In this document: piece by piece, positions 47,824 through 53,578 of the stretch
Layout of the letters: each line of letters begins with the position of its first letter
Position numbering within the stretch: the stretch's first letter is position 1
Assembly: GCA_019058365.1 (NCBI GenBank)
Contig: JAHPZE010000011.1
Location: 1-64,000, forward strand
Reading direction: 5' to 3'
DNA from: Promethearchaeota archaeon
GTDB lineage: Archaea; Asgardarchaeota; Lokiarchaeia; Sigyniarchaeales; SOKP01
Length of the DNA stretch: 64,000 nucleotides
Position numbers and translations under genes: made by a program
Notes under the pieces: model-generated
The model's database searches: none
The model's input: the letters and a program-made list of their open reading frames with translations, nothing else
Told to the model about the DNA's origin: nothing

Positions 47824-49218
47824 ATGAATGACAAATTTGATCAACTCCAGAAGATAATTGTGAAACTTATGCGGAAATTCAAGGTTCCGGGTTTAGCAAT
47901 TAGTATTGTACAAAATGATACCAGTCTATACGAAAAGGGATTTGGTGCTCGTAACCTTGAGGAGAATCTACCAATGACACCAAATACCTTAATAGGGATC
48001 GGTAGTATCTCAAAATCATTTACTGCTTTTTTGATATTAAAATTACGCGAAAAAGGTCAACTAAACTTAGATGATTCGGTTAGTAAATTTTTAGAAATTG
48101 AACCCTTTTTGAGTCATCCAGATATTATAATTGCTCATCTCTTATCACATAGCAGTGGAATACCTTCAGTTGATGCGCAATGGCTCCCTATTGCGATCAC
48201 ATATGGTGACTATCAACGTATTTATCCAATAGGTTCTCTTGATGACTATCTTTATCATTTGTCCGAAACTAAAGATGAGATCTTCTTTAAATCAGGAGAA
48301 AAATTCTTCTATAATAATGATATGTTTACTCTTTTGGGATTACTAATAGAAAAGATTACTGGAAAAACCTTTGAAGAAGTTTTAAATGAAGAAATATTGA
48401 AACCCTTAGAAATGACGCGTGCTACGGTCAATCGAGAACAACTTGAAAAGGATCCAATGAAAGATTATATTACGGGTTATATTCATAAAGGCTCAGAAGA
48501 AAAATTGCAATTTGACAAGCCTAAGTTACCTTTTTCGAAATTTCTTCAAGCACCTGGTGGTTTATATACATCTATGCATGAAATGTTAAATTATGCTGAT
48601 TGTTTATTACAGAAAGGTATTTTTAAGAACAAGCGAATAATTGAATCAGAGTCTATTGAATTGCTCTGGAGTCCTAGAATTAAATCACCATATGGGTATG
48701 GAAAAGATCCTAAATACTGCTTAGGTTGGGTTCGGGAGGAAGATTTTCTGAATAACACCCTAATTCATCATGGAGGGGGGTTGGGTGTAAGTACTTCCTT
48801 TTTTGGATTAATCCCAGAGTTAAATATTGCTGTTAGCGTTGCTGAAAATGATGACAGTGGAATTTGCGGTATAGTTGGAATATGTGCTTTAACTATGATG
48901 GTTGGAAAAAATCCTGAACAAATTAATGAAAAACTAAAAATAATTGAAATTTATGATAAAATTGCTGGCAGTTATAAATCATCCCTAGGTTTGTATAAAT
49001 TAGAAGTATCTTTTAAAGCTATGTCCATTCATATTAAAGTTGAATCGGATGATGGAATCTTTAATTTTCCCCTTATTATTGAAAATTTCGATGATTTAAC
49101 TTTTAGATTATTTTCGACAATTCCCTCAAATCTTCAAAAAGTTAAATTTTATCAAGATTCTAAGACGGGAAAAGTGGAATATGTAACATATGATAGGTAT
49201 CTTTACCATAAACTATAA
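47824..49218 (+). CDS. Serine hydrolase, beta-lactamase/AmpC (peptidase S12) family
   Basis: SxxK (GSISKSF), YxN (FFYNN), HGG, LLSHSSG. Confidence 0.92.
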   Translation: MNDKFDQLQKIIVKLMRKFKVPGLAISIVQNDTSLYEKGFGARNLEENLPMTPNTLIGIGSISKSFTAFLILKLREKGQLNLDDSVSKFLEIEPFLSHPDIIIAHLLSHSSGIPSVDAQWLPIAITYGDYQRIYPIGSLDDYLYHLSETKDEIFFKSGEKFFYNNDMFTLLGLLIEKITGKTFEEVLNEEILKPLEMTRATVNREQLEKDPMKDYITGYIHKGSEEKLQFDKPKLPFSKFLQAPGGLYTSMHEMLNYADCLLQKGIFKNKRIIESESIELLWSPRIKSPYGYGKDPKYCLGWVREEDFLNNTLIHHGGGLGVSTSFFGLIPELNIAVSVAENDDSGICGIVGICALTMMVGKNPEQINEKLKIIEIYDKIAGSYKSSLGLYKLEVSFKAMSIHIKVESDDGIFNFPLIIENFDDLTFRLFSTIPSNLQKVKFYQDSKTGKVEYVTYDRYLYHKL

Positions 49219-49357
49219 TTTTATACCCTAAAACATTTTCTTAAATTAATAGAAATTATCAATGATTGGTCTATAAAAATTATTTATAGCAATTTTAATT
49301 CATTTAGCTTAGAAAATAATTAAGTTTATATTAATTTTAAAGGGTTGAGGTATTTTA

Positions 49358-49609
49358 ATGAAAGTTAGTATTAGATATCATGAAATTTTAGAAGAATTTT
49401 TAGAAAAAGAATTGGATTGGTTAAAAGAAGAATTTGAGATTTTATTTAATTCAAAAATAGAAAATTATACTAAAAATGATAAAAAGCTCGCAAATGATAT
49501 CTTAGATTATATTTTAGAAAATACCTATGTTTATGATAATATTATATTAATTAATTTGTTGAATCAAGCTCTGGAAAGTATTGAAAAAAAGTATGTTAAT
49601 CTATTTTAA
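49358..49609 (+). CDS. Small acidic hypothetical protein
   Basis: 83-aa ORF with GAGGT SD. Confidence 0.6.
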   Translation: MKVSIRYHEILEEFLEKELDWLKEEFEILFNSKIENYTKNDKKLANDILDYILENTYVYDNIILINLLNQALESIEKKYVNLF

Positions 49610-49851
49610 TTGATTATTTACAACGCATTAAATAAATTTGAATATTCATCAAAAATTTCATAATGAAAGCCAAATCATCTTTCCAAAAAATTAAGATCAG
49701 ATAAGTTATGACAAGATGTTTAGTGCGTAATAAATATTTACAATATAAATATGAATCATAGAGTGTTTTTATATGAGAATACATTTGGATACTCATCACT
49801 ATACGTTCGTATTTATTCATATTATTGAACATATAAATATTAAAGTGATAG

Positions 49852-50424
49852 TTGTTTAAAATGAAACCTGATATCGTAGATCAAGAATTTTCTCCCTACA
49901 CTATGGCTAGTGTCATTATTGGAACGAAAGTAGAACAAAAACCCAACTTTATGGTGTGTACTTGGGTAAGTCGAGTCAATCGTAATCCTCCCATGTGGAT
50001 GGCTTCTGTCAATAACAAGCATTATTCGTTAGAAGGAATTAAGACAAATCAATCATTCTCAATGAATTTTCCTTCAACATCCCAAGTAAAAGAAACTGAT
50101 TATGTTGGAATCACTTCGGGTAGAAAGGTGGACAAATCAAAAGTTTTTGAAATATTTTATGGTGAGACTGATGTTCCCTTAATAAAAACTTGCCCGTTTT
50201 CAATTGAACTGACTTTAACCCATTCTATTCGAATGCAAGACCATACATTACTTGTGGGAACTGCCCAAAATTCATATTTAGGAAGAGAATATTATACAGA
50301 TGGGCTCCCAGATATGTCTAAAATGGATTTAATGATTTATACTGGGATCCCTGCCACTTATTGGTCCCTGGGTAAAATTGTTGGCAAAGCTTTTTCAGTA
50401 GGACAAGATTTCAACTATCTATAA
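49852..50424 (+). CDS. Flavin reductase-like (flavoredoxin) FMN-binding protein; start may be the ATG at 49861
   Basis: NFMVCTW, FSMNFP, DYVGITSGRKVDK, HTLLVG, YWSLGKIVGKAFSVG. Confidence 0.88.
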   Translation: MFKMKPDIVDQEFSPYTMASVIIGTKVEQKPNFMVCTWVSRVNRNPPMWMASVNNKHYSLEGIKTNQSFSMNFPSTSQVKETDYVGITSGRKVDKSKVFEIFYGETDVPLIKTCPFSIELTLTHSIRMQDHTLLVGTAQNSYLGREYYTDGLPDMSKMDLMIYTGIPATYWSLGKIVGKAFSVGQDFNYL

Positions 50425-50642
50425 CGCATTAAATAATATGTTATAGCTACATCTGGTTTTAATTTTTTGGAAAGATGATTTGTCTCTCAATATGTTTTTT
50501 TTGATGTATATTCAAATTTATTTAATGCGTTACAAATAAATACTTTGATTTTCAGAAAAATATTTAGAAATACCATTAAATTTTTATTTGTAAATATGTA
50601 ATTGAAAATTACATATAACATTGTGAAGTCTTTTTTATAATT

Positions 50643-50693
50643 ATGGCAACTTTGCAAACTTTTGGTTGGCAGTGGCCTTGGTGTTGGCAATAA
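50643..50693 (+). CDS. Candidate Trp-rich leader peptide MATLQTFGWQWPWCWQ
   Basis: ATG...TAA, 16 codons, four TGG codons in alternating positions, 159 nt upstream of trpB2. Confidence 0.75.
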   Translation: MATLQTFGWQWPWCWQ

Positions 50694-50745
50694 AGCCAAT
50701 TGCAAAGGATTCTATGTAATATTATTTTTTCGTTTTAATATTTTT
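50650..50745 (+). promoter_or_regulatory. Candidate attenuator: alternative hairpins followed by U-tracts
   Basis: CTTTGCAA (50650..50657)/TTGCAAAG (50700..50707); GCCAA (50695..50699) can pair with TTGGC at 50684 or at 50666; T-tracts from 50725. Confidence 0.55.
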
Positions 50746-50852
50746 CTTAATATTAAAATCTCTTTCTAAATGCGCATTAAACATATTGAATTCCAGTATT
50801 TTGATGACACACATCATAAGATGTGAAAAAATGAATATCAAAGGTAATTAGA

Positions 50853-52256
50853 ATGATAGATAATTTTAATGGAAGAATATTACTACAACCAAATGAAATT
50901 CCAAAGAATTGGATAAATATTTTACCAGATTTACCCTCTTCTATGACGCCCTTAATTAATCCGATGGATGGGAAACCCATTCCTCCTGAAATGGCATTTG
51001 CTATATTTCCAAAAGAATGTGTAATGCAAGAGTTCTCTTTAGAACCTTTTATTCCCATCCCTAAGGATTTGAGGGAAATTTTTGCCCGTACTTATCGACC
51101 AAGTCCACTACATCGTGCTTTAGGCTTAGAGAGAGACTTAGGTATAGAAGGAGATAGAATTAAAATATTTTATAAAAATGAGTCTTGTTCTCCAACGGGG
51201 TCACATAAACCTAATACTGCCATAACCCAAGCATACTATGCAAAAAAAGAAGGTACTGAAGAATTGGTTACGGAAACAGGTGCTGGACAGTGGGGATCAG
51301 CTTTGGCATATGGCTGCAATTTATATAGACTTAAATGCATCGTATACATGGTAAGAGCAAGTTTCATCCAAAAACCAGGCAGAACTATTTTAATGAGAGC
51401 TTTTAATGCTGAAGTACATGCTAGTCCTTCAAATCTCACTGAATCAGGAAATAAATTTTTACAAAAAGATCCCAAACACCCAGGTAGTCTAGGAATCGCG
51501 ATTTCTGAAGCATTAGAACATAGTATGAGAAGTGATAAAGCACGATATTCTCTTGGAAGTGTAGTTAATTTTGTGCTTTTACATCAAACAATTATAGGAC
51601 AAGAAGCTAAAATACAACTAGCGAAAGTGGGTATTAAAAAACCAGATATAATTATCGGGTGCATGGGAGGTGGTTCTAATTTTGGAGGCTTGATGATTCC
51701 GTTTATGAAAGATAAACTTAACGGAACAACTCCAGATATGGAATTTATTGGTGTAGAACCTCGAGCATGCCCTAGTGTTTGTAAAGGAGAGTATAGATGG
51801 GATTTTGGAGATTCTTCGATGAAAGGGCCGATAGTGAAGATGTATACTCTAGGGCATACTTTCGTGCCAAGCCCAATTCATGCGGGAGGATTAAGATATC
51901 ATGGAATGGCTCCTATTATTTCAATTCTATACAAAAACAAATTTCTCAACACAGTTATGCATCATCAAACTGAAGTAATTAACGCCGGTATTCAGTTCGC
52001 TAGAGCTGAAGGTATACTTCCTGCTCCAGAAACTGCGCATGCCATACAAGAAACAATTAATCAGGCATTGAAAGCTAAAGAAAACAATGAGAAAAAGGTA
52101 ATCTTGTTCAATTTTAGTGGTCATGGATTTTTTGATCTATTAGCTTATAAGGAGTTTATGGCTGGAAATTTAAAAGAATTTGAATTACCTACTAATGAGA
52201 TTCAAAGAAATTTAGATTCTGAAGAAATGCCCATAATCGATGAAACCAAATTTTAA
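50853..52256 (+). CDS. trpB2: Tryptophan synthase beta chain 2 (TrpB2)
   Basis: IPKNWINI, SPTGSHKPNTA (PLP Lys), TETGAGQWG, GGGSNFGG, IHAGGLRYHG, NFSGHG. Confidence 0.95.
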   Translation: MIDNFNGRILLQPNEIPKNWINILPDLPSSMTPLINPMDGKPIPPEMAFAIFPKECVMQEFSLEPFIPIPKDLREIFARTYRPSPLHRALGLERDLGIEGDRIKIFYKNESCSPTGSHKPNTAITQAYYAKKEGTEELVTETGAGQWGSALAYGCNLYRLKCIVYMVRASFIQKPGRTILMRAFNAEVHASPSNLTESGNKFLQKDPKHPGSLGIAISEALEHSMRSDKARYSLGSVVNFVLLHQTIIGQEAKIQLAKVGIKKPDIIIGCMGGGSNFGGLMIPFMKDKLNGTTPDMEFIGVEPRACPSVCKGEYRWDFGDSSMKGPIVKMYTLGHTFVPSPIHAGGLRYHGMAPIISILYKNKFLNTVMHHQTEVINAGIQFARAEGILPAPETAHAIQETINQALKAKENNEKKVILFNFSGHGFFDLLAYKEFMAGNLKEFELPTNEIQRNLDSEEMPIIDETKF

Positions 52257-52333: not shown

Positions 52334-53578
52334 TCATGGAAATAACCGAGCTATATGTCTATCGTAAATGTTTTCGATAATATTTGGAGTTATTATATAT
52401 TCATATTTTTTTAGGACTTCTATATATCGAGATCCCATTTCCCCAGCAATTTTATATCCAATATGCAGAAATTGACGAAAATTTGGATTAAAATCTTTAC
52501 AAGCTTCATCATGTTGTAAAACTTTAGCAAATTCTTCGCCAGTCCAATTGTTAACCAAGCTTGGATGAGGCAATTTATCTTTTTTGATATTTATCACAGT
52601 TCTATAAGGAAGATATAGCTCATCAAACCGAATATAAGCTTTATTATAAATTTCTTTAGCGATTTTCAGACATTCACCTCCAACAATGGCTAAAGTAGCT
52701 ATTTCTTCTAACCATGTAGTTCCAGACGTCTTTAAATGAACTCCAGTGTTAAATTTTTTAATAACATTATTAATAATTTCATAAATTGAGAATTTATCAC
52801 TTCCGGAATGAATGCTTAACTTTAAATTATTTGGCAAAGAGAACTCCTTTATCGAAAACTGAATAATCTCTATTAAATTCTCAAAATTTTTCGCAAACTG
52901 CTGAATGTTTCCCTGATAATCAATTCCCTTATAAAAGCTACCACAAAATCTAGGAGCAAATGTCTGAACGGGGATTTTTTCATCGGCTATAGCAGCTAAT
53001 ATAAAAAGTACTTCTATAGGTGTTTGAGGTTTACTCGATTCATCCATAGAGATTTCAATTATAAAGTTATTCTTACCCTTTTTTTCCTCAATTTTACGAT
53101 AAATCTTCCCAGCTTCTTTTATTGCGAGGAGATATTCTTCAGCAATAGAATATACCTGCTTTTCGTTAACATTTAAAGACTCTTTGATATTTAGAATTGA
53201 TATTTTTCTAATGTATTTTTCATATTTATCAGTAAAAGCTTTTAAGTCATCATTCGACGCTTTTTTTCCTATAAACTCTGCTACATCCAGTGTAAAAAAA
53301 TTACATGAATCAACATACGAATCCACATTAGAAAATCCTATGTGATCAGCATCAATATAATATTTACCCTTCCATTTTAATTCCTTTACGGCCTTTTGAG
53401 CTTCATTTAAAACATCTAGAGGTGTTGTTTTGGTAATTAAATGTTCTCTATGAGATTTGTTCCACACAGCAGCAAGGTCTACACCATTTTCTTCTGCTTT
53501 TATTATTGCTTTTAGTAGAGCTTTCCCTTGGCATCCAAATCGATCCCCTATGCCAATTGAATATTTTTGTAATTTCAT
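52334..53578 (-). CDS. uxaE: Tagaturonate/fructuronate epimerase family
   Basis: SIGIGDRFG, DADHI, EISMDE, APRF.G.F.KGIDY, KLSIHSGSDKFSIY, HLKTSGTTWLEE. Confidence 0.9.
   Translation of the reverse strand: MKLQKYSIGIGDRFGCQGKALLKAIIKAEENGVDLAAVWNKSHREHLITKTTPLDVLNEAQKAVKELKWKGKYYIDADHIGFSNVDSYVDSCNFFTLDVAEFIGKKASNDDLKAFTDKYEKYIRKISILNIKESLNVNEKQVYSIAEEYLLAIKEAGKIYRKIEEKKGKNNFIIEISMDESSKPQTPIEVLFILAAIADEKIPVQTFAPRFCGSFYKGIDYQGNIQQFAKNFENLIEIIQFSIKEFSLPNNLKLSIHSGSDKFSIYEIINNVIKKFNTGVHLKTSGTTWLEEIATLAIVGGECLKIAKEIYNKAYIRFDELYLPYRTVINIKKDKLPHPSLVNNWTGEEFAKVLQHDEACKDFNPNFRQFLHIGYKIAGEMGSRYIEVLKKYEYIITPNIIENIYDRHIARLFP

Follow-up and report, generated by a model that had tools for sequence, protein, structure and literature searches.

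Does the short reading frame in front of trpB2 in a Promethearchaeota archaeon gauge the tryptophan supply of the cell, as leader peptides do in bacteria, and does it thereby set the expression of the gene behind it? The window analysed here (64,000 nt, positions 1 to 64,000 of contig JAHPZE010000011.1, assembly GCA_019058365.1) carries trpB2, which encodes a stand-alone TrpB-like pyridoxal phosphate (PLP) enzyme, and upstream of it an open reading frame (uORF) of 16 codons, four of which specify tryptophan. Comparison with related genomes indicates that this uORF is a real, strongly conserved and tryptophan-specific leader mini-gene, very probably working as a ribosome-read regulator. We further consider it probable that 50643-50693 is the regulatory leader peptide gene of trpB2, in which stalling at UGG codons under low Trp-tRNA would raise expression by read-through of a U-tract.

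A tryptophan-coding frame in front of trpB2

The question arises from three features of the window:

50643..50693, + strand: leader ORF of 16 codons, with its ATG at 50643 and its TAA at 50691-50693
50667, 50673, 50679 and 50685, + strand: TGG codons, placing tryptophan at codons 9, 11, 13 and 15
50853..52256, + strand: trpB2, stand-alone TrpB-like PLP enzyme of 467 aa, identified by profile matches

The first-pass annotation of this DNA had described a W-x-W-x-W-x-W frame lying in a GC-richer island 159 nt upstream of trpB2, and had read it as the leader of a ribosome-mediated attenuator. The descriptive part of this account was confirmed throughout. Coordinates and codons of the frame could be read directly from the sequence, the gap to the trpB2 ATG at 50853 is indeed 159 nt, and the GC content of the uORF is 0.32-0.33, that of its flanks 0.16-0.22. 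The identity of the downstream gene as TrpB2 is likewise firm, with 626.7 bits for NF009057 (cut-off 366) and 580 bits for TIGR01415.

Such a frame is exceptional in its own genome, which has 4.74 Mb and 29.5% GC and is 100% complete by marker genes. Tryptophan makes up 1.07% of the crude proteome and 25% of the uORF codons. When all intergenic same-strand uORFs upstream of genes were ranked for single-residue bias over the whole genome, this one came first (p 8.8e-8), and ATG-initiated ORFs of at most 20 codons with at least four Trp number only seven on both strands of the 4.74 Mb. The other top-ranking biased uORFs that were annotated (rich in Arg, His, Ile, Leu, Asn or Val, and three more rich in Trp) served as a negative control for this ranking, and none of them lies before genes for the cognate amino acid. 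Moreover, TrpA, the canonical TrpB1, indole-3-glycerol phosphate synthase (IGPS, TrpC) and the anthranilate synthase TrpE were not found in this complete genome, so that TrpB2 is the only Trp-making enzyme found in it. The organism thus appears unable to make tryptophan de novo and to rely on TrpB2 alone, an enzyme that probably forms tryptophan from indole and serine.

Conservation of Trp-rich uORFs across Asgard genomes, which the first-pass annotation had named as the check to be made, came out clearly. A Trp-rich uORF precedes trpB2 in 71 of 80 related Promethearchaeota loci. These species-level loci were taken from a genome collection and have TrpB2 identities of 69-99%; in the 71, the ORF has 10-28 codons with 2-6 in-frame TGG (mode 4) and lies about 190-230 nt before trpB2. 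The nine loci without a uORF have a different upstream neighbour nearby and show no match to R1, a covariance model that we built from the uORF region. R1 matches the genome of the window once (E 6e-15) and 92 of 131 genomes of the family, spanning 13 genera; it finds no leaders in other families, and these were read by eye and with an ORF scan. Within the same genus, all 27 of the 27 trpB2 genomes carry a frame of 13-22 codons with the core W-Q-W-P-W at about -210.

The way in which this frame varies is informative as well. Among the 71 leaders the start codon is ATG in 67 and GTG or TTG in four, and the stop codon, always in frame, is TAA in 39, TAG in 25 and TGA in seven. From the start to the first Trp codon, the leaders show 65 different nucleotide sequences. 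Some lineages have lost single bases, which displaces the end of the frame; these carry an extra upstream Trp codon, and the Trp run is kept for that reason. A retained start, three types of stop and a frame that survives indels point to translation, and the uORF looks like a translated frame rather than a mere RNA motif. No clear Shine-Dalgarno (SD) sequence precedes its ATG in the clade of the window.

The same leader is also found away from trpB2, in front of complete trp operons. Eight genomes have two R1 matches, and seven of the second copies were retrieved. Four of these present a W-rich uORF some 170-430 nt before a trp operon (L172, L173, L175 and L178): in L172 the operon reads trpD-C-F-B-A-E-G, with 7/7 genes confirmed by Pfam, in L175 and L178 its first gene was confirmed as trpD, and L173 was assigned solely by matching ORF sizes. 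Two others (L174 and L176) are trpB2-type loci, each before an unannotated ORF of the size of trpB2. The trp-operon leaders have the same anatomy as the trpB2 leaders, including the hairpins P5 and P6 described below. In the last copy (L177:139-234; G094:C96:3938-4033) the next gene has no Pfam match and no recognisable trp gene follows; here the first TGG has become TAG, an adjacent codon is altered and the leader ends inside P5, and an intact copy sits elsewhere in the genome. Judged by these lesions, the L177 copy is a decayed relic. As far as the loci compared here tell, the leader is linked exclusively to Trp-synthesis genes.

Beyond the range of R1, other families of the order and class have short frames before trpB2 that end in W-A-W, W-P-W or W-S-W a few codons from the stop, and this includes GC-rich genomes. 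In the family f2 (L114, L115, L117-L121 and L131), leader peptides of about 29 residues end in W-P-W-H and lie about 290-370 nt before trpB2; the middle part of the peptide is conserved at the amino-acid level in one genus. In f2 a conserved hairpin begins with the G of the stop codon. In half of the eight sequences one of its pairs is A-U instead of G-C, and a run of U4-5 comes 4-6 nt after the hairpin. A ribosome stalled at the Trp codons would cover the 5' strand of this hairpin, which is the clearest mechanical picture that we obtained. Three of the f2 genomes are single contigs of 4.3-6.0 Mb and may be cultured or closed strains.

Some further observations concern the surroundings of the locus. 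The neighbours of trpB2 (47824-50424 and 52334-53578) are unrelated to tryptophan: upstream there are a beta-lactamase-family protein, an 83-codon frame without a Pfam match and a flavin-reductase-like protein, and downstream, on the opposite strand, a UxaE-like epimerase. A minus-strand ORF of 72 codons that runs over the leader (50487-50705) was rejected, as it is not conserved; the corresponding frames in relatives have a median of 22 codons and differ in frame. Using aragorn with introns allowed, we found no tRNA-Trp gene in the assembly, among 30 tRNA genes in total. This shortfall may reflect many tRNA genes with unusual introns, or genes left unassembled.

Candidate promoter, folds and U-tract of the leader RNA

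The region from the candidate promoter to the trpB2 start can be divided as follows:

50577..50589, + strand: A-rich stretch with a TTTTTAT box, candidate transcription factor B recognition element (BRE)/TATA box, in near-invariant columns of alignments of 28 and of 71 leaders
50608..50615, + strand: 5' strand of helix P1, pairing with 50713-50720 in the minimum free energy (MFE) fold of the window; the MFE folds of six diverse relatives have equivalent long-range helices
50645..50677, + strand: helix P3, formed by codons 2-4 and the first half of the Trp run and seen in MFE folds of both the window and relatives
50678..50705, + strand: hairpin P2 over the stop codon, whose 5' strand holds the last Trp codon plus the codon after it, with the stop in its loop and GCCAA in its 3' strand
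50713..50720, + strand: 3' strand of P1 in the MFE fold, ending 4 nt before the U-tract
50722..50730, + strand: oligo-T tract, candidate archaeal termination signal, with T6 at 50725-50730 and enrichment across leaders
50734..50757, + strand: AU-only hairpin P4, just past the U-tract, with compensatory changes in 6 pairs
50775..50806, + strand: extended hairpin P5, with 84.5% of alignment cells paired and 8 pairs changing on both sides
50810..50825, + strand: hairpin P6 (CACATC/GATGTG), with both-side changes in some sequences for 6/6 pairs and 55.5% of cells paired
50843..50847, + strand: SD-like GGTAA, 5 nt before the trpB2 ATG and conserved in alignments

The start of the transcript differs from what the first-pass annotation had supposed. 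It had suggested a leaderless mRNA, which was not supported: the uORF ATG comes about 55-60 nt downstream of the TATA-like box, and 5' of this ATG there are conserved pairing partners. Genome-wide, the genes of the host mostly carry SD-like words, which peak at -15 to -6, and have leaders of variable length. Given these words, the variable leader lengths and the position of the box, a leaderless start is not favoured.

When the window and seven diverse relatives were folded as single sequences, the MFE structures around the uORF shared a common plan of P1, P3 and P2. P1 is an AU-rich, long-range helix that joins the stretch 5' of the ATG to a stretch 20-30 nt after the stop. Its duplex energy was compared with that of shuffled sequences; in narrow anchored windows a signal appeared in distant clades only, where 38% of leaders reached p<=0.05 (mean z -1.4), and 45-nt windows gave none (mean z -0.5). 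P2 and P3 are well kept in the clade of the window itself, whereas P1 has statistical support only in the more distant ones. The hairpin over the stop codon had been predicted in the first-pass annotation and is present, with 50683-50688 pairing with 50695-50700 and the stop in the loop. P2 is paired in 72-88% of alignment cells, and its architecture is kept with different sequences in other clades and in GC-rich families. P3 has 85% of cells paired and little covariation; as the Trp run is near-invariant, P2 and P3 can hardly covary. When whole leaders were aligned with MAFFT and folded with RNAalifold, the stop hairpin and P5 alone were recovered.

The Trp run has competing partners, namely codons 2-4 and the conserved segment that follows the stop; neither pairing is backed by covariation. 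In the 71 leaders the codon after Trp almost always begins with C (CAG 70, CGT 60, CCT 43, CAA 25). This creates UGGC repeats every 6 nt, each of which is able to pair with the post-stop GCCA, so that several registers of the stop hairpin are possible. The alternative pairing originally envisaged fared less well. A second pairing, of 50650-50657 with 50700-50707 and of 50666-50670 with 50695-50699, does exist in the window, but it is not conserved and is absent even at 99% TrpB2 identity. The alternative hairpin thus proposed, of CTTTGCAA with TTGCAAAG, is specific to the genome of the window, and we do not retain it.

The U-tract after the leader ORF, in contrast, is more than a feature of one genome. 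It had been noted from position 50725 onwards, and T6 is found at 50725-50730. Of the 71 leaders, 85% have a T run of at least 5 located 15-70 nt after the stop, compared with 33% of intergenic windows of equal size; for a run of at least 6 at the same place, the values are 54% and 15%.

The RNA past the U-tract is conserved too. P4-P6 have a covariation score of 0.181 compared with 0.112 in shuffles, a value reached by 0/500 shuffles, and comprise 124 double changes. P6 includes the CACATC/GATGTG pairing that had already been pointed out, and the comparison agrees with it (50810-50815 with 50820-50825). The apex of P5, with a self-complementary GAAUUC, is near-invariant in leaders of both trpB2 and trp operons, and such an invariant loop suggests a specific partner, be it a protein, a loop-loop contact or another segment of the leader. 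Pairing of a CAUUGGA segment with the P5 apex was considered and not adopted: L090 is compensatory, and the L096 group and L084 do not fit. The 3' strand of P5 resembles a TATA box; in the trp-operon leaders it changes along with its 5' partner, and the spacer is therefore conserved as RNA and not as a promoter. Conservation of RNA past the U-tract also means that the polymerase does get there, which fits one leader from the uORF to trpB2. We take this as an argument for a common leader RNA of uORF and trpB2, from which we infer their co-transcription.

A proposed path from ribosome stalling to trpB2 expression

In the mechanism that we propose, a ribosome would translate the uORF during transcription of the leader. 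When charged tRNA-Trp is scarce, it would stall on the four UGG codons, which lie within P3 and the 5' strand of P2, and would melt both helices; the compact fold closed by P1 ahead of the U-tract would then not form in time, RNA polymerase would pass the U-tract at 50725-50730, and trpB2 would be expressed. When tryptophan is plentiful, the ribosome would reach the stop codon and leave, the leader would fold, and most transcripts would be terminated at the U-tract, be it intrinsically or with the help of FttA/aCPSF1. Both modes have precedents: termination of the archaeal polymerase takes place at U-tracts and with FttA/aCPSF1, which works with U-tracts (PMC8716108, PMC11616081). Sensing a shortage of tryptophan makes sense for this organism because no second Trp-synthesis gene was found in its genome. 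The parts of this scheme that we infer are the stalling, the sign of the response and termination as the output, rather than translation or RNA stability. The first-pass annotation had coupled Trp-tRNA supply to trpB2 through a leader peptide, and to this extent comparative support is strong: frame, start, stop and TGG run are found in >90 genomes, copies precede operons, and a copy without a trp gene has decayed. Terminator read-through, the second half of that proposal, did not find the same backing, as no bacterial-type terminator was detected.

Several observations weigh against the scheme and temper our confidence in it. A stalled ribosome would not cover P1 or the U-tract, so that the link from stalling to termination is in this family a matter of argument. 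The terminator scanner reported no bacterial-type terminator in the leader of the window or in two GC-rich relatives. P1 is no better than shuffles in the clade of the window, the fold of the window leader has a z of just -1.37, and the helices internal to the uORF (P2 and P3) are nearly without double changes. The C-initial codons after Trp show constraint at the RNA level as well as in the frame, one sub-group of leaders has just two Trp, and related genomes are non-independent samples.

The explanation closest to ours keeps the UGG-stalling sensor and changes its output: refolding of the leader (P4-P6 and the SD region) would alter the translation of trpB2, or the stability or processing of its mRNA. 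The conserved hairpins speak for such an output, since P4-P6 lie past the U-tract and yet covary and are common to the trp-operon leaders, which would be pointless if the U-tract decided everything. In addition, the spacer between SD and ATG is in some folds paired with the stretch before P5, and a canonical terminator was not detected. However, the end of the uORF is 159 nt from the start of trpB2, too distant for direct translational coupling, and the pairing that would mask the SD is inconsistently conserved. The U-tract, for its part, is enriched and keeps its position, and sister families have a hairpin plus U-run right after the stop. We therefore regard control of translation or stability as unlikely, although it deserves to be taken seriously.

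A second explanation dispenses with the ribosome. The leader would be a structured RNA whose UGG/UGGC repeats at 6-nt spacing are direct binding sites for a protein or tRNA-Trp, and the ORF would be incidental. The leader is indeed a conserved multi-helix RNA, and its Trp run is conserved at the nucleotide level, with near-fixed intervening codons (CAG, CCT) and four UGGC complementary to the post-stop GCCA. In the TRAP leaders of B. subtilis and in T-box leaders, too, a structured trp leader carries repeated triplets or a UGG specifier. Unlike those systems, the Asgard element has a conserved start, frame and stop. The ATG stands at a fixed distance in 67/71 leaders, three types of stop occur in frame, the frame and the Trp run are kept through indels with N-terminal codons varying freely, and distant families retain W-x-W and the stop only, not the sequence of the repeats. 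TRAP leaders have about 11 (G/U)AG repeats, compared with only 3-5 UGG repeats here. The TRAP protein (PF02081) was not found in the genome of the window, and a search of 50450-50900 against Rfam, with E up to 10, returned only noise, without a match to Trp_leader (RF00513), T-box or any other family. Direct binding with an incidental ORF is thus an improbable account of this leader.

A sensor of free tryptophan is less credible again. In the tryptophanase operon of E. coli, a ribosome stalled on TnaC decides downstream transcription through a factor-dependent terminator (bioRxiv 10.1101/2021.03.31.437805). A similar arrest peptide that detects tryptophan in the ribosome tunnel, and turns the gene on at high Trp, might be seen in the conserved W-Q-W-P-W core, which contains proline, and in the longer f2 peptide with its conservation at the amino-acid level. 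TnaC, however, senses free Trp and induces a catabolic operon. The targets of the Asgard leader are biosynthetic (trpB2 and whole trp operons), so induction by tryptophan would be counter-productive, and the signal would most simply be the Trp codons themselves. The number of Trp and the residues between them vary, and the fixed Trp...Asp...Pro spacing of TnaC was not seen by eye in leader peptides of 10-28 residues. We consider an arrest peptide very improbable.

Finally, it is hardly conceivable that the uORF is an independent micro-protein gene, adjacent to trpB2 by coincidence or acting in trans, for although a TATA-like box before it and a U-tract after it give it the look of a small stand-alone gene and the AT-rich spacer could hide another promoter for trpB2, the pair is kept across 13 genera, the same leader stands before trp operons, a copy apart from trp genes has decayed, and the spacer is conserved as base-paired RNA, with P5 strands that change together, and not as a TATA box.

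Relation to known leaders and implications for Asgard archaea

Read as an attenuator, the leader finds its nearest counterparts in bacteria. The enterobacterial trpL (RF00513) and the bacterial his, leu, thr, phe and ilv attenuators likewise equip a biosynthesis unit with a very short ORF in its 5' leader. The Asgard leader shares with the enterobacterial trpL the clustering of Trp codons near the end of the ORF within helices, followed by a U-rich tract and then the structural gene. It differs in having four alternating Trp codons instead of two adjacent ones, in the lack of a GC-rich terminator hairpin abutting the U-tract in this family, where the helix ahead of that tract closes around the whole ORF, in the further conserved hairpins that occupy about 120 nt between the U-tract and the gene, and in its archaeal host with its own termination machinery; it would work like the trpL attenuators and lies outside their RNA family. 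Leaderless short polycysteine ORFs in mycobacteria are reported to be Cys-responsive attenuators of operonic gene expression (bioRxiv 10.1101/834739). They too are tiny, rich in codons for the amino acid made by the downstream genes and read by the ribosome as a gauge of supply. They are bacterial and leaderless; the Asgard uORF is probably leadered and lies 159 nt from its gene.

Control of trp genes in archaea has been seen in a different form. TrpY is a DNA-binding repressor of archaeal trp operons that acts at the promoter, as worked out in Methanothermobacter. To our knowledge, no other Trp-responsive control of archaeal trp genes has been characterised. Attenuation by leader peptides, a bacterial mechanism found in every textbook, needs ribosomes close behind RNA polymerase. 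In the literature that we searched, we found no description of an amino-acid-sensing leader peptide or of attenuation in any archaeon, all cases being bacterial, which is not proof of absence. Archaeal Ribo-seq papers mention uORFs in general terms only (PMC10117724, PMC11456600), and transcription-translation coupling has been reported in archaea, e.g. in haloarchaea (PMC8576121).

The Trp leader may be one member of a wider set, together with Phe-, Ile- and Leu-rich uORFs before pheS, ileS and leuS. A Phe-rich short frame (5/6 consecutive residues) lies about 300 nt upstream of pheS (G000:C50, 48040-49576, minus strand), a short frame ending in four Ile lies upstream of one ileS copy (G000:C37, 43649-46111, minus strand), and one with a Leu-rich tail lies upstream of leuS (G000:C17, 19996-22860, minus strand). 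These frames call for caution, as such residues are common by chance in AT-rich DNA. On the practical side, the model R1 could serve as an annotation marker and the leader as a candidate Trp-responsive switch for archaeal genetics.

That this organism keeps only TrpB2, and would control its gene tightly, hints at a dependence on indole or tryptophan from partners. To conclude, we lean, with some reserve, towards the view that Asgard archaea use bacterial-style leader peptides, read by the ribosome, for attenuation, with four UGG codons gating a U-tract terminator before trpB2, as the first such case in Archaea. The conserved Trp leader offers a test case, open to mutation, of how an archaeal ribosome talks to a eukaryote-like polymerase and to termination at U-tracts or by FttA. 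If this view is correct, it would be the first amino-acid attenuation described in Archaea, and transcription-translation coupling would serve regulation in the prokaryotes most closely related to eukaryotes.

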